In this document: positions 17,077-29,238 of the stretch, piece after piece
Layout: each line of letters starts with the position of its first letter
Numbering within the stretch: position 1 is the stretch's first letter
Assembly: GCA_963728605.1 (NCBI GenBank)
Contig: CAVSKS010000002.1
Span: 210,607-274,606 of the forward strand
Reading direction: 5' to 3'
Origin: an uncultured Chloroflexia bacterium
GTDB lineage: Bacteria; Chloroflexota; Limnocylindria; Limnocylindrales; CSP1-4
Length of the DNA: 64,000 bases
The notes under the pieces: generated by a model
Told to the model about the DNA's origin: nothing
Seen by the model: the letters and a program-made list of their open reading frames with translations, nothing else
The model's database searches: none
Position numbers and translations under genes: made by a program

Positions 17077-17484
17077 TCAGGCGCGCCGGATCACGACCGG
17101 AACGGTTCCTCGAAGCGAGTTCGGAATCTCCGCGACGCGGTCCACCTCGGCGATCAGGTCGTCGATCGCCTCCTCCGGAGCGTCCGCTTCGACGTCCACC
17201 ACGACGCTGATCGGCGTGGACGGGGCCCCACGGGCTGGAAAGTCGCCGTCGACCTCGACTGCCACGCGGCGCAGGGCGATGCCCAGCGACCCGGCCTCCC
17301 GATACAGGTCATTGGAGACGCAGGCAGCGATGGACAGGTACAGGAGCTGGCCGCCGCTGAAGCCATGCCCCCCGCCGCCCGCCGCGATCGGACGGTCGGC
17401 GACTAGCGTCAGCGGCCCGGCCGAGCCGAGGGCCGTCGGGCCGCCGTCGACGGTCACCATCTGGACCCGGTAGGCATCGGACAT
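17077..17484 (-). CDS. OsmC/Ohr-like protein
   Basis: DRP...GG.G.G.SGGQLL...IAAC; the second Cys appears absent (AEIPNSL). Confidence 0.75.
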   Translation of the reverse strand: MSDAYRVQMVTVDGGPTALGSAGPLTLVADRPIAAGGGGHGFSGGQLLYLSIAACVSNDLYREAGSLGIALRRVAVEVDGDFPARGAPSTPISVVVDVEADAPEEAIDDLIAEVDRVAEIPNSLRGTVPVVIRRA

Positions 17485-17500
17485 GCGAGCGGACGGCGCC

Positions 17501-18693
<1,193 letters not shown>

Positions 18694-18697
<4 letters not shown>

Positions 18698-19206
18698 AGC
18701 GGCTCGACCTCGATCAGTGGCTGCTTGGCCTTTACCAGCTGGCCGCTCTCGGCAACGACCCGGACCACCCGGCCGGCGAGGTCGCTCTTGATCTCGTTGA
18801 ACAGCTTCATCGCCTCGATCAGCCCGATGATCTGGCCTGTCGCCACCTCGCCACCGACCGTGACGTAGGGCGGTGATCCGGGCGCAGGCGAGGCGTAGTA
18901 GATCCCGGTCAGCGGGGCGAGGACGGCGGGCTTGGACGGCGGGGCGCCCGCCGGGGCCGCATCGGTCGCCGGCTCCGCGGGCGGTGCCGCCGCCGCCGGA
19001 GGTGCCTCGGCTGGCGCGATCGCCGCTGGCTTGCGCAGGACGAGGCCCGTACTACCGGCCTCGACCTCGAGCTCGGTGAGGTCGCTCCGATCGAGCAGGC
19101 TGGCAAGCCGGTCGATGAGGCCCAGTAGCGACGCGTCGCCGGCTTCGACGGGACCGGACCCCAAATCACCCGCGGCGGGACCGGGGCGTGTCCCCTCCTC
19201 GGTCAT
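18694..19206 (-). CDS. accB: Biotin carboxyl carrier protein
   Basis: IEAMKLFNEI biotinylation motif; Ala/Pro linker; ATGA overlap with fabF. Confidence 0.92.
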
Positions 19207-20465
19207 TCGTCCCACCGCCGGAAGACGAGGGCGGTGTTCTGCCCGCCGAACCCGAACGAGTTGGACATCGCCAGGCTGATGTCGCGGCGCCCGGCCTCGT
19301 TCGGGACCAGGTCGAGCCCCACGGCCGCGTCGTCGGGCCGCTCGAGGTTGATCGTGGGCGGAACGCACGAGGTCCGGATCGCCTGGATCGTGGCGATCGC
19401 CTCGATCGCCCCGGCCGCCCCCAGCGTGTGGCCGAGCATCGACTTGTTGGCGGTGACGGCGACCTTCGGTGCGTGGTCGCCGAAGATCGTCCGGATGGCC
19501 TGGATCTCGGCCTTGTCGCCCTCCGGCGTGGAGGTGGCGTGGGCATTGACGTGGTCGACCTCGTCGGCCCGGGCGCCGGCCTTCTCGAGGGCCCGGCGGG
19601 CCGCCCGGACGGCGCCGATGCCACCCGGGGCGGGCAGGGTGATGTGCGATGCGTCGGCCGTGGCCCCGTAGCCGACCAGCTCCGCCAGCGGCTCGGCGCC
19701 CCTTCGCTGGGCGCTGTCGAGCGTCTCCAGGACGAGGACACCCGAGCCCTCGCCGATCACGAAGCCGTCGCGGCCCTGGTCGAATGGCCGCGATGCGGCC
19801 TCCGGGTCGTCGTTGCGGGTCGACAGGGCACGCATCGCGCAGAAGCCGGCCACCAGCGCCTCGAAGATCCCCGCCTCGCTGCCCCCGGCGATCATGATCT
19901 CGGCGTCGCCCCGGCGGATCGTTTCCCACGCCTCGCCGATGGCATGACCGCCGGTCGCGCAGGCCGACACCGTCGTGAAGTTCGGACCGGTCATCCCGAA
20001 GCTGATCGCGATCTGGCCGGCGCCGATGTTGGGGATGCCCATCGGGATGAGGAACGGGCTCACGCGATCGGGACCCCGGCTGGCGTTGATCGTGATCCCC
20101 TCGACGAGCGTCCCCACGCCGCCCAGGCCGGTGCCCAGGATCACCCCGGTCCGCTCCGCGTCGGCGCCCTCGAGGCGCGCCGGCAGGCCAGCCTGGTCCA
20201 TCGCCTGGCGGGCGGCGATCAGGCCGAACAGGATGTAGCGATCGGTTCGCCGGAGGTCCTTCCGATCGAGGATGTGCGATGCGTCGACCTCGCGGACCTC
20301 ACCCGCCATCTGGGAGGTGAGTCGCGACGGGTCGAAGGCCTCGATTCGCCGGACCCCTGAGCGGCCGGCGACCAGGCTGTCCCAGGTGCTCGCCACGTCC
20401 GGCCCGAGGGCGGTGATCGCGCCCATGCCGGTAACCACGACGCGCGGCGTGCCGTTCCCGCTCAT
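19203..20465 (-). CDS. fabF: Beta-ketoacyl-ACP synthase II
   Basis: SACATG, NAHATST, KSMLGH, SNSFGFGGQN. Confidence 0.95.
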   Translation of the reverse strand: MSGNGTPRVVVTGMGAITALGPDVASTWDSLVAGRSGVRRIEAFDPSRLTSQMAGEVREVDASHILDRKDLRRTDRYILFGLIAARQAMDQAGLPARLEGADAERTGVILGTGLGGVGTLVEGITINASRGPDRVSPFLIPMGIPNIGAGQIAISFGMTGPNFTTVSACATGGHAIGEAWETIRRGDAEIMIAGGSEAGIFEALVAGFCAMRALSTRNDDPEAASRPFDQGRDGFVIGEGSGVLVLETLDSAQRRGAEPLAELVGYGATADASHITLPAPGGIGAVRAARRALEKAGARADEVDHVNAHATSTPEGDKAEIQAIRTIFGDHAPKVAVTANKSMLGHTLGAAGAIEAIATIQAIRTSCVPPTINLERPDDAAVGLDLVPNEAGRRDISLAMSNSFGFGGQNTALVFRRWDE

Positions 20466-21271
20466 CGGACGAGTTTGCCCGTGCGGACCGTGGCGGCGCG
20501 ATAGACGTCGCCGGGGAGGCCGCGGGCCGAGATGGCGTTGGCGACGCTGAGCACGTCGAACTCGGTCCGCCGGATCTCGGCCTTGGTGACCGGATCCCGG
20601 CGGGCGGGCGGTTCGTCGTCGTCGGCGTCCCGGTCGGGAGCCGGGGCAGGACCGCCCCCCTCGTCGATCTCGATCAGTGCCCAGGACGCCGTGGGGTCGC
20701 CGTCGAAGACGTAGCCGGCCGAACCGGCGTTGACGATCCGCTTGAAGCCCAGGTCACGGATCTCCGGAATGTGGGTGTGGCCGCAGCCGATGACCCGGGC
20801 GTCGGTTCGGGCCGCGCGCTCGAAGACCACCGACGCGTCGAGCGCCTGATCGAAGCCCTGGGTCTGCGAGCCCGGCGAGGCATGGGTGATGAGGACCAGC
20901 GTCTCGCCGATCCGGAGGCGTCGTTCGGCCGGCAACTTGCGCAGCCAGTCGACGCCGTCGGAGCCGATCTGGTCGTGGGCCCATTCCGCGGCCGCCCGGA
21001 AGGAGTCGGGCACGCCCTCGGTGAGCCAGGGGAAGGCGGCGGTGTAGTCGAAGTCGGCGACGGCGATGTCGGTGTTGCCCTGGACGACGAGCGCGCCGTC
21101 GGCCTCGAGCTCGCGGATCCCGTCGAGCGTCGCCGCGGGCTCGGGACCGATGAGCACGAGGTCGCCGCAGATCATCACCGCGTCCGGCTTGGCGCTCTTG
21201 ACCTGTTTTCGGACGGCCGCCAGCGCGGTCGCGTTGCCATGGGTGTCGGACAGGATCGCGAGGCGAGCCAC
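20462..21271 (-). CDS. Calcineurin-like metallophosphoesterase (YfcE-like)
   Basis: SDTHGN, GDLV, GNTD, THA and GHTH motifs. Confidence 0.88.
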   Translation of the reverse strand: MARLAILSDTHGNATALAAVRKQVKSAKPDAVMICGDLVLIGPEPAATLDGIRELEADGALVVQGNTDIAVADFDYTAAFPWLTEGVPDSFRAAAEWAHDQIGSDGVDWLRKLPAERRLRIGETLVLITHASPGSQTQGFDQALDASVVFERAARTDARVIGCGHTHIPEIRDLGFKRIVNAGSAGYVFDGDPTASWALIEIDEGGGPAPAPDRDADDDEPPARRDPVTKAEIRRTEFDVLSVANAISARGLPGDVYRAATVRTGKLVR

Positions 21272-21774
21272 TACCGCAGTACCCCCGCCGGTGGGATGAC
21301 GAAACTCAGTAGCCCTTCACAGGCAACCTCGCCGTCGACCGTCGCCACGCCCCTCCCGCGCCCGAAGCGCGAGCCGAGCTTCTCCATGGTGACCTCGAGC
21401 CGGAGGGTGTCGCCGGGGGCCACGATCCGCTTGAAGCGGACCTCGTCGATCCCCGCAAACAGCCCGATCCGGTCGCCGAAGCCGGGCTGCTTGGCAACGT
21501 AGATCGCCATGGTCTGGGCCAGCGCCTCGACCTGGAACACGCCGGGCATCACCGGCAGACCCGGAAAGTGGCCCTGGAAGTACCACTCGTTCGCCGTCAC
21601 CCCCTTGATCCCGACGATCCGCTTGGCCTCCGGGTCGTACTCGACGATCCGGTCGACGAGCAGGATCGGCCAGCGATGCGGGATCAGACCCTCGATCTCC
21701 GCGGTCGTATGGACGATCCCCGCCGTGGTCGTGGCGGCGGGCGAGGGCGCTGGGGCGGTGGTGGTCTCGGTCAC
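21271..21774 (-). CDS. fabZ: 3-hydroxyacyl-ACP dehydratase
   Basis: IPHRWPILLVDRI, FQGHFPGLPVMPGV..EALAQ. Confidence 0.95.
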   Translation of the reverse strand: MTETTTAPAPSPAATTTAGIVHTTAEIEGLIPHRWPILLVDRIVEYDPEAKRIVGIKGVTANEWYFQGHFPGLPVMPGVFQVEALAQTMAIYVAKQPGFGDRIGLFAGIDEVRFKRIVAPGDTLRLEVTMEKLGSRFGRGRGVATVDGEVACEGLLSFVIPPAGVLR

Positions 21775-21896: not shown

Positions 21897-23267
21897 TCAC
21901 GCCCTGGTCGCAGCCGCCAGGAACGCGGCGCTTCCGACCCGGTCCAGCAGGCTCGTCGTCACCTTGCCTTCGAGGAACGCCTCCGACGCAAGCAGGGCCT
22001 GGTGGATCGCGACGTTGGTCACGAGGCCCTCGATGAGCAGCTCGTCGAGGGCCCGCTTGGAGCGCTCGATCGCCGACGCCCGGTCCGGGCCCCAGACGAT
22101 GAGCTTGCCGAGCAGCGAGTCGTACCACGGTGGCACCTCGTAGCCGGCATACAGGTGCGAGTCCATCCGGACGCCGGGACCACCCGGTACGACGTATCGC
22201 TCGATGATGCCGGTGTCGGGCCGGAAGTCGTGCTCCGGGTCCTCGGCGTTGATCCGGAACTCGATCGCGTGCCCGCGGACCTCGACGTCCGCCTGGCTGA
22301 ACCCCAGCGGCTCGCCGGCCGCGATCTTGATCTGGGTGGCGACGAGGTCGATCCCGGTCAGCATCTCCGTGACCGGGTGCTCCACCTGGATCCGGCAGTT
22401 GATCTCGATGAAGTACGGGTTGCCATCGCGATCGACGAGGAACTCGAGGGTGCCCACGTTCTCGTAGCCGGCCGAGACGACCGCCCGGATGGCCCGGTCG
22501 CAGAGCTCGGTACGGGCGGCCGGCGAGAGGGCCGGCGTGGGTGCCTCCTCGAGGATCTTCTGGTGGCGTCGCTGGACCGAGCAGTCGCGCTCGCCAAGAT
22601 GGACGCCACGGCCGTACCGGTCGACGGCGACCTGGACCTCGACGTGGCGGTTGTCCTCGAGCCACTTCTCGAGGTACAGCGAGTCGTCCCCGAAGGCGGC
22701 CTTGGCCTCCGACCGGCAGACCTTGACCGCCGACTCGAGCTCGCGCGGCGAGCGGACCATCCGCATCCCTTTGCCCCCGCCGCCGGCCGACGGCTTGATG
22801 AGGACCGGATAGCCGATCCGCTCCGCTTCCTCGAGGGCGTGGATGTCGTCGCGCAGCAGCCCGAGCGAGCCGGGGATCGTCGGCAGGCCCTGGGCGCCGA
22901 GCAGCCGGCGGCTGCCCTCCTTGCTGGCAAACCGCTCGAGGACCTGGGGCGGCGGCCCGATGAACGTCAGCTCATGGGCCCGGACTACCTCGGCGAAGCC
23001 CTCGTCCTCGGACAGGAAGCCGTAGCCCGGGTGGATGGCGTCGCAGCCGGTCACGATCGCCGCCGAGATCACCGCCGGCGCGGACAGGTAGGAGCGCTTG
23101 GCGTCCGCCGGTCCGATGCAGATCGCCTCGTCGGCGAGCTGGACCGGCAGGCTCTCGCGGTCGGCCTCGCTGTAGGCGACCACCGCCTCGACGCCCAGCT
23201 CGCGGCAGGCGCGCAGGATCCGCAGGGCGATCTCGCCCCGGTTGGCGATCAGGATCTTGCGGAACAT
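21897..23267 (-). CDS. accC: Acetyl-CoA carboxylase biotin carboxylase
   Basis: KILIANRGEIA, HPGYGFLSE, GGGGKGMR, ERDCSVQRRHQK, RIQVEHPVTE. Confidence 0.96.
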   Translation of the reverse strand: MFRKILIANRGEIALRILRACRELGVEAVVAYSEADRESLPVQLADEAICIGPADAKRSYLSAPAVISAAIVTGCDAIHPGYGFLSEDEGFAEVVRAHELTFIGPPPQVLERFASKEGSRRLLGAQGLPTIPGSLGLLRDDIHALEEAERIGYPVLIKPSAGGGGKGMRMVRSPRELESAVKVCRSEAKAAFGDDSLYLEKWLEDNRHVEVQVAVDRYGRGVHLGERDCSVQRRHQKILEEAPTPALSPAARTELCDRAIRAVVSAGYENVGTLEFLVDRDGNPYFIEINCRIQVEHPVTEMLTGIDLVATQIKIAAGEPLGFSQADVEVRGHAIEFRINAEDPEHDFRPDTGIIERYVVPGGPGVRMDSHLYAGYEVPPWYDSLLGKLIVWGPDRASAIERSKRALDELLIEGLVTNVAIHQALLASEAFLEGKVTTSLLDRVGSAAFLAAATRA

Positions 23268-23968
23268 CAGCCCTCGCCTTCGGGGCTCGCGACAGGTGCG
23301 TCGTCAAGCGAAGGGTCGCCGATCCTCGCGGTGGACCCGATCAGCTCGATCACCACCAGGTCCTGGCCGTACTCCACCGCGTCGCCGGACTCGGCGAGGC
23401 TGGCACCCACGATGCCGTCCGCCGGGGCGATGACCTCCTGGGGCACGCCCAGCATGTCCACGTTGCCGATCCGGTCGCCGGCCCGAACGCGCGTGCCCGC
23501 CCGGATCTGCGTCGACGGGCGATAGACGCCCACCGCAGGTGACGTGGCGACGGTGCGGTGCTGGTCGGCGTCTCCGCGCCGCCGATCCCCGGGCTGGCCG
23601 GTATCGGTCCGTGCCGGTCCCACGGGGACGGGCTCCGCCGGACCGCTGCCGTTCGACGAGTGGCCGGTGGCCATCCCGGCCTGCCGGGCGGCGCGGTGTC
23701 CCTCGATCGCCGCCGGTGCGTGGCCATGGCCGGAGTGGCCCGGCTGCGACCGCGACGGGCGGTCGGTCGCCCGGCGGCCCTGGTTCGGACCGTCGCCGGG
23801 GCGCCGCAGGCGGACCTTCCAGTCACCCTCGCGGACCTCGATCTCGCCCAGGCCGGTCGCGGCGAGCTTCGCGATCAGCGCCGGGAGCAGCTCCGTGCTG
23901 AGCCGCTCGATCTCGGCATGGTCCGCCGCCCGCGCGCGAGGCTTCGCGTTGGGGCGAGGGTCGGGCAC
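23267..23968 (-). CDS. BCCP-like biotin/lipoyl-attachment-fold protein lacking the biotinylated Lys (BADC-like)
   Basis: BCCP architecture (L.EIEV..G N-domain, linker, SPAVG....V.AGD.IG, G..VEYGQ.L..I), but EAMK is replaced by DMLG. Confidence 0.85.
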   Translation of the reverse strand: MPDPRPNAKPRARAADHAEIERLSTELLPALIAKLAATGLGEIEVREGDWKVRLRRPGDGPNQGRRATDRPSRSQPGHSGHGHAPAAIEGHRAARQAGMATGHSSNGSGPAEPVPVGPARTDTGQPGDRRRGDADQHRTVATSPAVGVYRPSTQIRAGTRVRAGDRIGNVDMLGVPQEVIAPADGIVGASLAESGDAVEYGQDLVVIELIGSTARIGDPSLDDAPVASPEGEG

Positions 23969-23971
23969 TCG

Positions 23972-24982
23972 TCAGACCTCCTCTCGGGCCGGCGGCTCGT
24001 CCCGGCCGCGTCCCGGTCCGGGCAATCCGCTGGACCACCGTCCCGGATCGAACGCCTTTCGCAGCCGGTCGCCCAGGCCAATGCGATCCGGAGCCGCCGT
24101 CGGTGGCGCCGTTTCCACCTCAGTGTAGGCGCCCAGGGTGCGGTACCGGCGGTACCTGGCGTCGACCAGCGCATCGACCGGGACGCGCTCCAGGGCGACG
24201 AGCTGTTCGAGGATCACGGCACGCAGCCGCCGGGCGGTCTCGGCATGGTCGGTGTGGGCGCCCTCGCCCGGTTCGGGGACGACGATGTCGATGACGCCCA
24301 GCTCGGCCTGTTCGGACGCGGTCATCCGCATCGCCACCGCCGCGGCCGGCGCCTCCTCCGGCGTTCGCCACAGGATCGACGCGCAACCCTCGGGGCTGAT
24401 CACCGAATAGACGGCGTTCTCGAGGGCGATCACGATGTCCCCGACGGCGATCGCCAGCGCCCCACCGGAGCCACCTTCGCCGGTGATCACCGCGACGATC
24501 GGGACACGGAGGCGGGTCATCAGCGCGATCGAGCGGGCGATCGCCTCGGCGATCCCGCGCTCCTCCGATTCGGGGCCCGGGTGGGCGCCCGGGACGTCGA
24601 CGAACGTCACGACCGGCAGGTTGAAACGCTCGGCCAGCTCCATCGCCCGGATCGCCTTGCGATAGCCCTCGGGGTGGGGCATGCCGAAGTTGCGGCGGAT
24701 GTTCTCGTCGGTGTCGGCGCCCTTCTGCTGGCCGATCACCACCGCCCGCCGGCCGGAGATCCGGGCCAGCCCCACGACCAACGCCGGGTCGTCGCCGAAT
24801 GACCGGTCCCCGTGGAGCTCGATGAACTCGTCGGCCAGGGTGTCGAGCAGCTCCAGGGTCCTCGGACGCCGCAGGTTGCGAGCCAGCTGGACGCGGTTCC
24901 AGACCGCATCCTTCGGATCGACCTGGGCCGCCGCGGCAGCCTGCTCGCGGCCGCGGCCGAGCAGGCGGTCAACCATCGTCAT
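23972..24982 (-). CDS. accA: Acetyl-CoA carboxylase carboxyltransferase alpha
   Basis: ELHGDR..GDD, RNFGMPHPEGYRKA, GEGGSGGAL, YSVISPEGCASIL. Confidence 0.95.
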   Translation of the reverse strand: MTMVDRLLGRGREQAAAAAQVDPKDAVWNRVQLARNLRRPRTLELLDTLADEFIELHGDRSFGDDPALVVGLARISGRRAVVIGQQKGADTDENIRRNFGMPHPEGYRKAIRAMELAERFNLPVVTFVDVPGAHPGPESEERGIAEAIARSIALMTRLRVPIVAVITGEGGSGGALAIAVGDIVIALENAVYSVISPEGCASILWRTPEEAPAAAVAMRMTASEQAELGVIDIVVPEPGEGAHTDHAETARRLRAVILEQLVALERVPVDALVDARYRRYRTLGAYTEVETAPPTAAPDRIGLGDRLRKAFDPGRWSSGLPGPGRGRDEPPAREEV

Positions 24983-26021
24983 CTCCGTTGGCCTTGCCGC
25001 GTGGCGGGTTCGAGCGGGGCGGGAGGGCGAGGGTCGGCTCACGAGTCGGTGGTGGCTCGGCGGGCTGGGACGGCCGGCCGTTTCCCTCGCCGTCGGCGTC
25101 AGGGATCACCCGGTCGGCCAGGGCCGAGAGGAAGGACAGCGGCCGGAACGAGGGCAACGAGAAGTCGTCGCTGCCGTTGGTTGCCTCGGCCGGCGCCGGC
25201 TCGAGGAAGCCCAGCAGGGCGGCGATCTCCGGCCGGAGCTGGGAGCGGTGGACGACCCGGTCGACGAAGCCGTGCTCGAACAGGAACTCCGAGCGCTGGA
25301 AGCCGGGTGGCAGCTCCTGGGCGATCGTGCCGGCGGAGACCCGGGCGCCGGCAAAGCCGATGAGGGCGTTGGGCTCCGCGAGGTTGATGTCGCCGATGAC
25401 GGCGAACGAGGCGAACACGCCGCCGGTGGTGGGGTCGCTCATGACGCTGATGAACGGCACGCCGGCGGCGCGCAGCCGCTCGACCGCGGCGATGGTCTTG
25501 GCCAGCTGCATCAGGGCCAGGCTGCCCTCCTGCATTCGCGCCCCGCCCGACGCGGCGACGACGATCAGCGGCAGCCGGGCTGCAAGGGCCGTCTCGGCAG
25601 CGCGAGCCACCTTCTCGCCGACGACCGCACCCATCGAGCCACCCATGAACCCGAAGTCCATGACGCAGATCGCGACCCGCCGGCCATCGATCGCGCCGAT
25701 CCCCCACACCGCGGCGTCCCGGAGCCCGGTCGCCAGCTGGGCCGCCGCGACCCGGTCGGGGTACGTCTTCTGGTCCACGAAGCCGAGCGGGTCGACCGAC
25801 TGGAGCCCCGCATCGCGCTCCTCGAACGTGCCCGCGTCGAGCAGCTGCTCGAGGCGCATCTCGGCCGACAGGCGGAAATGGTGGCCGCACGACGGGCAGA
25901 CCCGCATCACCTTGTCGAGCTGCTTGTTGAACAGCATCTCCTCGCACGACGGGCACTTGGTCCACAGGTCCGGCGGGTGCGCGTCCCGGCGGGGGCGGAA
26001 GGACGGCAGCTTGATCGGCAT
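24969..26021 (-). CDS. accD: Acetyl-CoA carboxylase carboxyltransferase beta
   Basis: WTKCPSC...CPSC zinc finger, FMGGSMG..VGEK, SGGARMQEG, PTTGGV.AS. Confidence 0.95.
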   Translation of the reverse strand: MPIKLPSFRPRRDAHPPDLWTKCPSCEEMLFNKQLDKVMRVCPSCGHHFRLSAEMRLEQLLDAGTFEERDAGLQSVDPLGFVDQKTYPDRVAAAQLATGLRDAAVWGIGAIDGRRVAICVMDFGFMGGSMGAVVGEKVARAAETALAARLPLIVVAASGGARMQEGSLALMQLAKTIAAVERLRAAGVPFISVMSDPTTGGVFASFAVIGDINLAEPNALIGFAGARVSAGTIAQELPPGFQRSEFLFEHGFVDRVVHRSQLRPEIAALLGFLEPAPAEATNGSDDFSLPSFRPLSFLSALADRVIPDADGEGNGRPSQPAEPPPTREPTLALPPRSNPPRGKANGDDDG

Positions 26022-26560
26022 CAGCGCTGGCTCGAGCGCATCGCGCCGGACTTGCGGGCCTGGTGGGCGGCCCGCACGGCGCGGGCCATCGGCGACCCGC
26101 GGCGGGCCGGGGCCTGCGACCGGCGCCAGGCCACCCAGGCGGCCCCGGCGAGGGACAGGGCGGCGGACGTCAGCGCGCCACCGATCAGGAGGGGCCGGAT
26201 CGTCTGCGGCTCGTCCGGCTCGTCGCGGAGCGGATCGGCGAGCGGGTCGAAGTCGGGATCGATGCCGGCCAGCGGCAGGAGCGGCACGGGCAGGGTCTCG
26301 CCGCCGGCCGCCGACGCGAGCTGCATCTCCTGGGCGGCCCGTCCGAGCCGCGCCGCCAGCCGCTCCTCGAACCGGAACGAGGGATGGAACCGGACCAGCT
26401 CGCGGGCGAGGGTCCGGGCCGCGTCACGGACGGCCGGGTCGAGCTCCGCGTCCGTTGGCACGTCGCCGGTGTGGCGCTCCGCGGCGGTCAGCAAAGCCTC
26501 GAGGTAGCGATCGGTCCGGAGCGCCTCGACCTCGTGGTCGTCCCGCGACTCGGCCATCAC
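26021..26560 (-). CDS. Hypothetical single-TM protein, putative anti-sigma factor
   Basis: Coupled downstream of the ECF sigma; cytoplasmic N-terminus with PSFRFEERL..RL; one C-terminal TM. Confidence 0.55.
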   Translation of the reverse strand: MMAESRDDHEVEALRTDRYLEALLTAAERHTGDVPTDAELDPAVRDAARTLARELVRFHPSFRFEERLAARLGRAAQEMQLASAAGGETLPVPLLPLAGIDPDFDPLADPLRDEPDEPQTIRPLLIGGALTSAALSLAGAAWVAWRRSQAPARRGSPMARAVRAAHQARKSGAMRSSQR

Positions 26561-27168
26561 CGCGGACCGTCACGGAGATCGCGGCCGACCGATCGGAGCG
26601 CCCGATGGAGCAGCACCCGGACCGCGCCCTCGGTTCGGCCAAGGACGCCGGCGATCTCGGCGGTCGTCATCTCGTTGACGAAGCGCATGACGATCGCCCG
26701 GCGGCGATCGGCCGGCAGGCGATTCACGGCCCGCCAGGCATCGGCGGCCTCGTCGCGGAGGGTCACCTGGCGCTCCACGTCGGCCTCGTCCGGCACGTTG
26801 GCGGCCGCCTCGAGCGATGCCTCGGGGTGGCGATTGCGGGTCCGCCGTTCGTTGGCGACCACGTTGCGGGCGATCCGGAACAGCCAGACGCGGAACGTCG
26901 ACGCTCCCTCCCCGTCTTCGGGGCGTGCCCGTTCGTCGAACCTGTGGAGGTTCGAGAGGGCGGCAAGGAACGTTTTCTCGGTCGCGTCCTCGGCCTGGTG
27001 ATGGTCGCCGAGCTCGTAGTACGCGTAGCTGTACACCTGGGCGAGATACCTGCGGTAAAGGGCCTCGAACCGTTGGGGATCGCGGCGTGCCGCCTCCACC
27101 AGCGGACGGTCGCGATCGAGATGGGTGAGCTTTGGACGGTTCGCTCTTCCAAACACCGGTCGGGCCAT
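26557..27168 (-). CDS. ECF sigma-70 factor
   Basis: FEALYRRY, AEDATEKTF, FRVWLFRIARN; region 4 EIA.VLG.TEGAVRVLLHRA. Confidence 0.92.
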   Translation of the reverse strand: MARPVFGRANRPKLTHLDRDRPLVEAARRDPQRFEALYRRYLAQVYSYAYYELGDHHQAEDATEKTFLAALSNLHRFDERARPEDGEGASTFRVWLFRIARNVVANERRTRNRHPEASLEAAANVPDEADVERQVTLRDEAADAWRAVNRLPADRRRAIVMRFVNEMTTAEIAGVLGRTEGAVRVLLHRALRSVGRDLRDGPR

Positions 27169-27172
27169 CGCG

Positions 27173-27973
27173 TTACACCCCGCCCGCGAGCCGGACGTGG
27201 ACGATCTCCGCCGAGGAGATGGAACGCGGGCCATTGGCGCCGCCGATCACGAGGGCCCCGGTAGCGGCGTCGACGTCCAGCGCGGTCGCCTGCTCGCGCC
27301 GGCCGCCGGCGGTCTCGATCGTGATCTGCCGGCCGGTGGTCGCCTGGCGTCCGGCCCAGGCCGGCTGGTCGAACTCGTCGCGGCGCAGCGCCGCGTAGCG
27401 GGTCTCAAATCCCGCCAGGAACCCGACGAGCAGGCGCTCGCGATCGATCGACCGACCGCGTGCAAGCTCGTGGAGCGAGGTCATCGTCTCGGCGAGCTCG
27501 GCCGGGAAGTCCTCTCGGGCCCAGCCGGCATTGACGCCGATACCAACCACGACGCGCGGGTCATCGGTCCCCAGCCCGACCGACTCGCCGAGGACGCCGG
27601 CCAGCTTGCGAACGCCGGTCGCTGTTTCGACGACCAGATCGTTCGGCCACTTGAGGCGGATCGTGCCGGGGGCGACGCCGGCGGCGCCTTCGGCCGCCTC
27701 CGCCATTGCCAGGCTGATCGTCGCGGCGAGGCGCCAGGTGCGGTCGGCGGCCAGCCAGGACGGCCGAAAGCCCAGCGAGAGCAGGAGCGCGGCGCCGGCC
27801 GGAGCGATCCAGCGGCGGGCCTCCCGGCCGCGACCCTGAGTCTGCTCGTCGGCGACCGCGACGGCGACCTCCTGGGTGCCCGCCGCGAGCCAGTCGCGGA
27901 CGACGTCGTTGGTCGAGCCGACGCGCTCGAAGCGCTCGATCCTGGAAAGCAGGGGCGGAGCGGCCGTCACCAC
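27173..27973 (-). CDS. birA: Biotin--protein ligase (no N-terminal HTH)
   Basis: GSTND, QTQGRGR, LKWPNDL, KLAGVL, GIGVN. Confidence 0.93.
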   Translation of the reverse strand: MVTAAPPLLSRIERFERVGSTNDVVRDWLAAGTQEVAVAVADEQTQGRGREARRWIAPAGAALLLSLGFRPSWLAADRTWRLAATISLAMAEAAEGAAGVAPGTIRLKWPNDLVVETATGVRKLAGVLGESVGLGTDDPRVVVGIGVNAGWAREDFPAELAETMTSLHELARGRSIDRERLLVGFLAGFETRYAALRRDEFDQPAWAGRQATTGRQITIETAGGRREQATALDVDAATGALVIGGANGPRSISSAEIVHVRLAGGV

Positions 27974-27975
27974 GC

Positions 27976-29238
27976 TCAGCCGGCGGCGGCGGTTTCGAGG
28001 GGCTCGGGCCGCTCGAGCTCGAACGCCCGGTGGAGGGCATTGAGCGCGGTCTCGAGGGCATCCTCGGCGATGATCGTCGTGATCCGGATCTCCGATGTCG
28101 AGATCATCTCGATGTTGACCCCGGCGTCGGCCAGCGTCTGGAACATCCGGGCCGCGTAGCCCGGCGTGTTGTGGATCCCGGCGCCGACGATCGAGACCTT
28201 GGCCACGGCGCTGTCGGTCGTCAGCTCGCGGAAGCCGAGATCGCGGGCCACGGGCTCGAGGATCCGCTTGGCCTTCGCCAGCTCGACCCGCGGGATCGTG
28301 AAGCTCAGGTCGGTCGCGCCGTGGTGACCCACGTTCTGGACGATCATGTCGACGTTGATCCCGGCATCGGCCAGCGGCTGGAAGACGTGGGCGGCGACGC
28401 CCGGCTTGTCGGGCACTTCGACCAGCGTGACCTTGGCGACGTTTCGGTCGTGGGCCAGCCCGCGGACCTTGTTCCGCTGTTCCACGTGCGGGTCCTCCGT
28501 GATGAGCGTTCCGGGGGCGTCCTCGAACGAGCTGAGGACCTCGATGGCGACCTGGTTGACCCAGCCGAGCTCGACGGCCCGGGTCTGCATGACCTGGGCG
28601 CCCTGGTTGGCGAGCTCGAGCATCTCCTCGTAGCCGATGACCGGGAGCTGGCGGGCGCCCTGGACGATCCGGGGATCGGCCGTGTAGATGCCGCGGACAT
28701 CCGTGAAGACCTGGCATTTGTGGGCTTCGAGCCGCGCAGCAAGGGCGACGGCCGTCGTGTCCGAGCCGCCTCGGCCAAGCGTGGTCATCTCGGCATCAGC
28801 GCTCGCCTGCTCGCTGAGGCCCTGGAAACCGGCGACGATCACGACCTTGCCGGCTTCGAGCTCCTGGCGGATTCGCCGCGGCTCGACGCCGGCGATCCGG
28901 GCCTTGCCGTAGCGGCCATCGGTGGTGATGCCGGCCTGGGCGCCGGTCAGGCTGATCGCCGGGACGCCCATCGCGTGGAGGGCCATCGAGACCAGGGTGG
29001 CTGACTGGTGCTCGCCGGTCGCGAGGAGCACGTCCAGCTCGCGCTCGTCCGGCTCGTCGGTGACGGCGCCGGCAAGAGCGATCAGGTGATCCGTGGTGTC
29101 GCCCATCGCCGAGACGACGACCACGAGGTCGCTGCCCGCGCTCCGCTCCCGGGCGACCCTGCGTGCCACGCGCCAAATCCGGTCCGCATCGGCCAGCGAG
29201 GAACCGCCGAATTTCTGAACGACGACGGGGGCAGCCAT
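27976..29238 (-). CDS. lysC: Aspartate kinase with two ACT domains
   Basis: VQKFGGSS, VVSAMGDTTD, TLGRGGSDTTA, ISTSEI. Confidence 0.95.
   Translation of the reverse strand: MAAPVVVQKFGGSSLADADRIWRVARRVARERSAGSDLVVVVSAMGDTTDHLIALAGAVTDEPDERELDVLLATGEHQSATLVSMALHAMGVPAISLTGAQAGITTDGRYGKARIAGVEPRRIRQELEAGKVVIVAGFQGLSEQASADAEMTTLGRGGSDTTAVALAARLEAHKCQVFTDVRGIYTADPRIVQGARQLPVIGYEEMLELANQGAQVMQTRAVELGWVNQVAIEVLSSFEDAPGTLITEDPHVEQRNKVRGLAHDRNVAKVTLVEVPDKPGVAAHVFQPLADAGINVDMIVQNVGHHGATDLSFTIPRVELAKAKRILEPVARDLGFRELTTDSAVAKVSIVGAGIHNTPGYAARMFQTLADAGVNIEMISTSEIRITTIIAEDALETALNALHRAFELERPEPLETAAAG

Follow-up and report, generated by a model that had tools for sequence, protein, structure and literature searches.

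A lysine-less, probably BADC-like relative of the biotin carboxyl carrier protein in the acetyl-CoA carboxylase operon of Limnocylindria

Introduction

A stretch of 64,000 nucleotides from contig CAVSKS010000002.1 of an uncultured Chloroflexia bacterium (assembly GCA_963728605.1, class Limnocylindria) was analysed and is referred to here as the window. On its minus strand, directly upstream of accC, the window contains an open reading frame (ORF), designated X, in the place usually taken by accB, which encodes biotin carboxyl carrier protein (BCCP). The product of X has the appearance of a BCCP without the lysine to which biotin is attached. The locus raises the question of what such a protein does in an operon for acetyl-CoA carboxylase (ACC), when a canonical AccB is encoded in the same window.

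Non-biotinylated look-alikes of BCCP have so far been treated as a peculiarity of plastid ACC, where they are called BADC. A preliminary description of the window proposed that X was a BADC-type regulator or scaffold of ACC, and this interpretation was supported by the analysis reported here. On balance, X was considered probably to be a BADC-like, BCCP-derived and non-catalytic fifth subunit of ACC, acting as a scaffold or 'glue' rather than as a decoy.

The X gene and its protein

The X gene was confirmed to encode a Lys-less homologue of BCCP. Its ORF was intact, started with GTG and encoded 233 amino acids; a GAGGAGG sequence was located 6-12 nt 5′ of the start. The start of X was found 3 nt after the stop codon of accA, and its TGA stop codon shared bases with the ATG of accC, forming TGATG. 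The family alignments referred to below are a 20-row alignment of X (A1), an alignment of AccC (A2) and one of AccB (A3). The features of X and the canonical accB were assigned as follows.

23267..23968, minus strand: X, Lys-less and thumb-less BCCP paralogue of 233 aa (ORF; weak Biotin_lipoyl and BCCP matches; conserved family)
23798..23944, minus strand: X residues 9-57, N-terminal helix and beta-hairpin (alpha/beta/beta), a putative oligomerisation motif of the AccB type (AlphaFold2; hidden Markov model (HMM) of the AccB N-terminus; dN/dS; modelled contact with AccB)
23693..23776, minus strand: X residues 65-92, His-rich linker motif RRxxDRxSRxQPGHxGHGHxPxxxEGHR (invariant columns in A1)
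23345..23557, minus strand: X residues 138-208, beta barrel like that of a biotinyl domain, without Lys and without the thumb (AlphaFold2, Foldseek, hhalign)
23435..23461, minus strand: hairpin VDMLGVPQE with Gly174 in place of the biotinyl Lys
18694..19206, minus strand: canonical accB, IEAMKLFNE, between fabF and fabH (Pfam 49 bits; TIGR00531 107.8 bits)

The (A/V)MK(M/L) hairpin of the biotinyl Lys was absent from X, which read VDMLG instead. Gly174, encoded by GGC at 23447-23449, was aligned to the Lys of IEAMKLFNE in AccB or of VEAMKMMNQI in E. coli by MAFFT, by a profile against 4HR7_B and by hhalign of the X against the AccB profiles. In the hhalign alignment (probability 96.6%, E 5.7e-10, 27% identity) Gly174 was placed under Lys134, and a 6-residue deletion in X fell at the 'thumb' of AccB. 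Compared with canonical AccB and E. coli BCCP, X was without the 6-7-residue thumb of ACC-type BCCPs. The closest sequence in the PDB was E. coli BCCP (4hr7_B, E 2e-10), against which the replacement of Lys by Gly and the gap at the thumb were seen as well.

The AlphaFold2 model on A1 consisted of a helix at residues 9-38, strands at 42-47 and 50-55, disorder at 59-134 and a confident barrel at 138-208 (pLDDT, predicted local distance difference test, 84-91). The top Foldseek match of X was 1bdo, the biotinyl domain of E. coli BCCP (TMt 0.79, 36% identity). The HMM of the AccB N-terminus scored 6.0-18.3 bits on 20 X proteins, 19 of which were above the best of 1000 shuffled sequences (7.2).

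The preliminary description was correct in reporting an intact ORF coupled to accC by a stop-start overlap, a Gly for the acceptor Lys (MAFFT, the profile and hhalign agreed) and the true AccB between fabF and fabH. The hairpin was present where it had been reported, at 23444-23461, however that range covered VDMLGV only and the full VDMLGVPQE occupied 23435-23461. A full BCCP architecture had also been claimed; the N-terminal motif, the linker and the C-terminal barrel were found, while the thumb was missing.

Since the barrel fold of X is intact and confidently predicted, the protein might still act as a carrier, with a different residue modified or a different prosthetic group attached. This was regarded as highly improbable. 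No conserved alternative acceptor was found: the Lys residues of X were located only at positions 9, 34 and 51, and the C-domain was Lys-free in 49 of 80 orthologues. The tip of the hairpin was Gly in all 80, and the thumb, which is typical of ACC carriers, was deleted.

Conservation of the lysine loss and of the gene order

A word-indexed protein search with X resulted in 3175 proteins at E<=0.001. The best 120 of them were 61-92% identical to X and mostly unannotated or named 'biotin carboxyl carrier protein'; those with a named source originated from Chloroflexota or Limnocylindrales metagenome-assembled genomes (MAGs). In the 60 most frequent strings of the aligned hairpin, the Lys column held Lys only in AccB and Gly in all others. 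When 1.84 billion 50%-identity representatives were searched exhaustively with an HMM, 147 matches were obtained at E<=1e-30. The Lys column of 150 listed representatives contained Gly in 140 cases, a gap in 8 (truncated rows) and a misaligned residue in 2. Only Chloroflexota clusters were returned for X by the Protein Atlas, with PF00364 on 40-99% of their members.

Further, a relative was encoded in 250 of 264 pattern matches among the GTDB species representatives. Gly occupied the Lys column in each of the 80 species loci that were kept, no frameshifts or stops were found in these aligned loci, and Gly174 was invariant in the 20 rows of A1. A sequencing error or local decay at Gly174 was considered and rejected, as no Lys codon can be reached from GGC by fewer than two base changes and Gly is a fixed feature of the relatives. 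It was concluded that the loss of Lys is fixed in X and is not a result of decay.

The A1 profile matched 39 of the 41 close relatives; the two genomes missed were 76% (G005) and 92% (G011) complete. In the class Limnocylindria (order Limnocylindrales) it matched 147 of the 151 genomes sampled, and the four misses belonged to a single family (f3) and were 76-91% complete. Unpublished genomes are included in these counts (G009 in the former; G099, G118, G122, G127, G136, G142 and G153 in the latter), and no claim is based on them alone. Short contigs with close homologues of X were also observed in bins labelled Verrucomicrobiia, Methylomirabilota, Patescibacteria, Deferrimicrobiaceae, Dormiibacterota and Polarisedimenticolia. 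Such contigs (L144, L150, L151, L178, L183, L192 and L197) are probably mis-binned Limnocylindria contigs.

The operon position of X was conserved as well. A carboxyltransferase (CT) gene was located directly 5′ of X in 39 of 40 loci from four families, the remaining locus (L016) being cut by a contig edge; this gene was accA, except in family f2, where an apparent accD-accA fusion was found. The accC gene was found 3′ of X in all 40 loci, adjacent in 28 and behind a spacer in 12 (families f3 and f4). The spacer (L034-L045) was a FabD-type gene, identified by Pfam Acyl_transf_1, in five of five tested, resulting in a class-wide order accD-accA-X-(fabD)-accC. Among the 80 species loci, accA 5′ and accC 3′ of X were seen in 54, and most of the others were ended by a contig edge. 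The canonical, fabF-linked AccB of the window was matched in 148 of the 151 class genomes, and IEAMKLFNE was present in all 31 AccB orthologues that were fetched.

Some variation was recorded in two families. In f3, an extra conserved ORF of ~105-115 aa without a Pfam match was located between X and fabD (L038 4352-4690; L044 3764-4081). In f2, known from genomes of ~1.1 Mb (L030-L033), a ~670-aa ORF 5′ of X matched accD and was apparently the accD-accA fusion; the X protein of this family was only ~157 aa long, with a short linker.

Selection on X and the His-rich linker

The dN/dS values were estimated by the Nei-Gojobori method as medians of pairwise comparisons between 11 X genes, 10 from the genus of the window and one from a neighbouring genus. 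As dS was high (0.6-1.2), the values are rough and the contrast between regions within X is the informative part. The lowest dN/dS within X was obtained for the N-terminal motif (residues 13-57; 0.19), followed by the His-rich region (58-107; 0.21) and the C-domain (138-210; 0.31). The variable linker (108-137) and the C-terminal tail gave 0.66 and 0.99, respectively, and the accC genes of the same loci 0.14. The N-terminal motif and the C-domain of X are thus under purifying selection, and the linker and the tail are near-neutral.

These values also bear on the proposal that X is a decaying, functionless relic of accB. The low scores of X on curated models and its near-neutral linker and tail would suit a relic, however the frame is intact, Gly is fixed throughout the class and outside it as well, the folded parts evolve at a dN/dS of 0.19-0.31 and the operon position is conserved. 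A relic was therefore regarded as scarcely credible.

The His-rich motif (PGH.GH.H) is part of the linker that AlphaFold2 left disordered. It was found in all 11 loci L006-L016 and in 66 of the 80 species loci; it was absent from the loci of 28 other relatives (L017-L045). The motif is limited to the genus of the window and its near relatives. Sensing of a metal or of pH by this linker is a guess.

Modelled complex of X with AccC and AccB

One three-chain model was made from AccC (A2), AccB (A3) and X (A1), with X as the scored partner. The ipSAE scores were 0.69, 0.69 and 0.68. In the controls the score fell to 0.00 and 0.00 when X was replaced and to 0.10 when AccC was replaced. The mark that the score of 0.69 reaches is shared with 58 out of 80 complexes of solved structure and 2 out of 110 mismatched pairs. 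Agreement between the runs extended to 44% of contacts or more, with a partner pLDDT of 58 or higher.

In the model, residues 145-148, 172-173, 175 and 197-202 of X were in confident contact with residues 34, 49-53, 59, 64-73 and 98 of AccC, and residues 16, 19 and 49-57 of X with residues 42-53 of AccB. Of the 24 residues of X in modelled contacts 14 were invariant in A1; for the whole protein the figure was 71 of 233. In 4HR7, the BCCP of E. coli is described as docking on helix 64-73 of biotin carboxylase (BC) (10.64898/2025.12.30.697075). A physical association of X with AccC and AccB is what the model predicts.

The same structural evidence, that is, X modelled on the BCCP-docking helix of AccC, would equally suit a decoy or rheostat. 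In such a role X would compete with holo-AccB for the BC site or poison the N-terminal oligomer of AccB, and would lower the flux, perhaps in response to pH or a metal through the His linker. A decoy agrees with the first model proposed for plant BADC and with an invariant His-rich motif under purifying selection. In plants, the occupancy of BC by BADC and BCCP is proposed to change with the pH of the stroma (10.64898/2025.12.30.697075, there citing Ye et al. 2020). However, X is located between accA and accC and is translationally coupled, so that production of an inhibitor would be tied to that of its target, and no separate regulation is evident for X. Moreover, the His motif is present in a part of the family only, whereas the Lys-less protein is class-wide. 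A decoy was considered rather unlikely.

Lys-less relatives in other Chloroflexota

In a phylum-level scan, which included the unpublished genome G341 (no claim is based on it alone), the best A1 matches in 11 other Chloroflexota families were also Lys-less. The residue found in place of Lys (G, N, A, R, Q, M or D) differed between families, and the hairpins read as follows.

Family f22: VDVLGVAHDV
Family f27: VE[TV]LGI
Family f25: VEALNV
Family f29: VEALAI
Family f38: IEVLNV
Family f10: IETLRV
Family f8: IEALQV
Family f33: IEVMMV
Family f14: VDTLDH
Family f34: IEALGM
Family f41: VEVLRM

Among the loci of the other families (L046-L061 and L065), those scanned with Pfam showed these relatives in the context pepP(M24)-efp-[gene]-xseA. 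Classically, efp and accB are neighbours in Firmicutes and in cyanobacteria. A gene that keeps EAMK fills the efp-xseA slot in three further families (f15, f32 and f52; L052, L055 and L056). The efp-slot relatives carry the N-terminal motif, most of them keep an insertion of thumb length, and a canonical fabF-linked AccB was found in each of five genomes checked (G315, G301, G217, G259 and G184). In the source genome of the window the slot is filled by a DinB-family gene, in the order YceG, pepP, efp, DinB, xseA (L207, G000:C9:434500-442500).

In a tree of 86 C-domain columns, all 53 Lys-less rows, of which 39 were X and 14 efp-linked, were set apart from the rest by one branch (SH-aLRT support 95); the fabF-linked AccBs formed a separate group (support 93). 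When the hairpin columns were removed, the trait needed two changes, and a single clade was not rejected by the approximately unbiased test (p-AU 0.447). With its short alignment and a number of long branches, the tree is compatible with one ancient loss of Lys and does not prove it. Near the C-terminus, a VEYGQ signature was kept in X and in all efp-slot genes. The fabF-linked AccBs (that of the window and L062, L064, L110, L118 and L123) were without VEYGQ, and in the class Limnocylindria had LVKAKQ. In the complex model the VEYGQ residues of X touch AccC.

We proposed the following course of events. An ancestral efp-linked accB would have lost its Lys in lineages that also possessed a fabF-linked accB; in Limnocylindria, the Lys-less copy would then have moved into the acc operon and lost its thumb. 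The lineage of X appears to be wider and older than first thought, since Lys-less relatives adjoin efp in other classes of Chloroflexota.

Operon and genome surroundings

The genes around X formed one tight minus-strand array in the order BirA-type ligase, ECF-type sigma factor, Pfam-less ORF, accD, accA, X, accC, fabZ, metallophosphoesterase, fabF, accB, fabH, OsmC-like gene and fabG. The coordinates not given above were as follows.

27173-28000 (about), minus strand: putative BirA-type biotin protein ligase (Pfam BPL_LplA_LipB, 56 bits; putative extent), within a long ORF at 27173-28717
26557..27234, minus strand: ECF-type sigma-70 gene (Pfam)
26021..26560, minus strand: ORF without a Pfam match, possibly an anti-sigma factor (Pfam scan)
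24969..26021, minus strand: accD, CT beta subunit with a zinc ribbon (Pfam Carboxyl_trans and Zn_ribbon_ACC)
23972..25042, minus strand: accA, CT alpha subunit, directly 5′ of X (Pfam ACCA, 379 bits)
21897..23267, minus strand: accC, BC, whose start overlaps the stop of X in TGATG (Pfam)
21271..21774, minus strand: fabZ (Pfam)
20462..21271, minus strand: metallophosphoesterase, between fabZ and fabF (Pfam)
19203..20465, minus strand: fabF (Pfam)
17501..18697, minus strand: fabH (Pfam)
17077..17550, minus strand: OsmC-like gene, between fabH and fabG (Pfam)

Both the metallophosphoesterase and the OsmC-like gene are located inside the array for fatty-acid synthesis. The sigma-70 gene and the Pfam-less ORF lie directly 5′ of accD and overlap it. 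According to BLAST labels, a sigma-factor gene was present 5′ of accD in 9 of 10 class loci that show accD (L026-L028, L034, L035, L040-L042 and L045) and was not seen in the tenth (L036).

Five domains of the biotinyl/lipoyl type were encoded in the source genome, which is 84.9% complete. One each belonged to X, to AccB and to a 524-aa open frame, and the other two to fused BC-BCCP proteins. The fused proteins lie near CT genes of the 12S type. X was also considered as the carrier of another carboxylase, and this candidate was rejected because the other two BCs of the genome are these BC-BCCP fusions with CT genes of their own.

The biotin protein ligase gene is located ~3 kb 5′ of X on the same strand. 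Its presence would suit a role of X outside the catalytic complex, either as an autoregulator of the acc and fab genes or as a non-consumable partner which titrates BirA or the PII protein. Within X, the strongest constraint falls on the N-terminal motif (dN/dS 0.19), and the N-terminus of E. coli AccB by itself (residues 1-68) is reported to down-regulate accBC (PMC11160672). In plants, PII is described as binding both BADC and BCCP (PMC12706156), and the Lys-less relatives of other classes are not encoded in acc operons. However, no DNA- or RNA-binding domain was found in X by Pfam, NCBIfam or AlphaFold2, the C-domain is constrained too, and its invariant residues are those modelled on AccC. 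Such a role was considered clearly unlikely.

Proposed role of X

X is encoded in one co-directional array with AccD, AccA and AccC, and its translation is coupled to that of accC. In the proposed role, its N-terminal helix-hairpin would join the N-terminal hairpins of the true AccB, and its Lys-less, thumb-less barrel would sit on the BCCP-docking helix of AccC, at about residues 64-73. The biotinylated AccB alone would shuttle CO2 between BC and CT. As for the direction of the effect of X on ACC activity, we infer a scaffold, in line with later proposals for plant BADC, rather than pure inhibition, because the place of X inside the operon provides for its co-expression in stoichiometric amounts.

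The preliminary description had suggested checks on the orthologues, on selection and on the complex, and all of these, run in silico, turned out in its favour. No orthologue retained MK, Gly being present in 20/20, 80/80 and 140/150 of the sequences in the three sets. The accA-X-accC order and the co-occurring canonical AccB held across the class, and the folded parts of X were under purifying selection. The modelling with AccC and AccB also agreed (0.69 against 0.10 for the best control), with the reservation that this pass may reflect likeness to E. coli BC-BCCP.

Several observations weigh against a fifth ACC subunit. Some concern the homology itself. X scored 19.9 bits on Pfam Biotin_lipoyl (PF00364), below the cut-off of 22.1, when the protein was searched, and 22.5 bits in a six-frame scan of the genome. 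Its top NCBIfam match, BCCP TIGR00531, was obtained at 36.6 bits, far from the cut-off of 115.2. Plain BLASTP of X against the AccB of the window gave a best E of 0.14, in the N-terminal motif only, so that profile methods were needed to establish the homology. The hhalign alignment of A1 with A3 covered the C-domain and not the N-terminus; the likeness of the N-terminus to AccB is weak and depends on the small HMM with its shuffles. Other points concern the complex. The user-supplied alignments and the three-chain design are outside the calibration of the complex tool. The model reproduces a known docking mode of BCCP, hence its pass may come from the memory of 4HR7 and other solved BC-BCCP complexes and indicates likeness rather than binding. 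With a score of 0.10 without AccC, the N-terminal pairing of X with AccB has no support of its own. The missing thumb could change the docking of X. Finally, the linkage of X to the acc operon is specific to the class Limnocylindria; the Lys-less relatives in the 11 other families adjoin efp and xseA and not acc genes. No isolate is found among the holders of X, which are MAGs; their labels read Candidatus Limnocylindrales, Limnocylindria, Chloroflexota or 'uncultured Chloroflexia'.

A more far-reaching proposal was also made, tentatively and as a possibility that is more doubtful than the scaffold itself. Two jobs of BCCP might be split between two proteins in Chloroflexota. The Lys-less paralogue, once linked to efp, would be a fixed structural subunit bound to BC helix 64-73 and contributing to a central N-terminal barrel, and the fabF-linked AccB would be the mobile catalytic arm. 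In that case ACC would be obligately composed of five subunits, and the His linker would add control by a metal or pH in this genus. If true, such a split would account for the roughly twofold amount of AccB, relative to the other subunits, that E. coli requires.

X would bear on the way in which bacterial ACC holds its carriers in place and on the reason why AccB is needed in excess. Being encoded in an operon and expressible in E. coli, it could settle the dispute over BADC as a scaffold or an inhibitor. If the proposed role is true, heteromeric ACC recruited 'dummy carriers' more than once. The practical reach includes the assembly of ACC as a target of antibiotics and herbicides, and lipid engineering.

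Comparison with known systems

In full-text searches of a limited library of papers, no bacterial Lys-less paralogue of BCCP was found. New in this work are the relatives in the efp slot of other families of the phylum, the deletion of the thumb, the His-rich linker motif, the contrast in selection between regions and the three-chain model with its controls.

E. coli AccB/BCCP (1BDO, 4HR7) and X share an N-terminal helix-hairpin, a flexible linker and a C-terminal barrel, and X holds the classical gene position beside accC, as AccB does. Unlike AccB, X has Gly for Lys and a 6-7-residue deletion at the thumb, and a separate canonical AccB is encoded in the genome. An alpha/beta/beta motif has been modelled for the initial 30 residues of the E. 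coli BCCP, and such motifs have been proposed to form a central beta-barrel that holds the carriers in ACC tubes (PMC11160672). The helix-hairpin of X matches this motif.

The efp-slot genes resemble X in their architecture, N-terminal motif and VEYGQ signature and belong to one group with it in the tree. They differ from X in having no acc neighbours, a varied replacement of Lys and mostly an insertion of thumb length.

A more distant parallel is offered by the epsilon subunits of actinobacterial acyl-CoA carboxylases, small proteins said to 'glue' the holoenzyme (PMC11926652). By analogy, X may be compared with them as a small, accessory and non-catalytic subunit. Unlike X, they are not known to be related in sequence to BCCP or derived from it.

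The closest counterpart is BADC. The BADC proteins of plants and green algae (BADC1-3 in Arabidopsis) are, like X, BCCP paralogues without a biotinylation motif that occur beside a true BCCP. The likeness extends to the homology, the loss of Lys and, as far as the model indicates, the contact with BC and AccB. BADC is thought to bind BC and BCCP, and published views differ on whether it inhibits as a competitor or serves as assembly 'glue' (PMC11926652; PMC12873504). It has been called 'unique to the plant htACCase' (PMC11926652). Unlike plant BADC, X is bacterial and encoded inside the acc operon. X is also without the thumb and, in this genus, carries the His-rich linker. The origin of X is likely independent of that of BADC, because X groups in the tree with the AccB-type sequences of the Chloroflexota efp slot.

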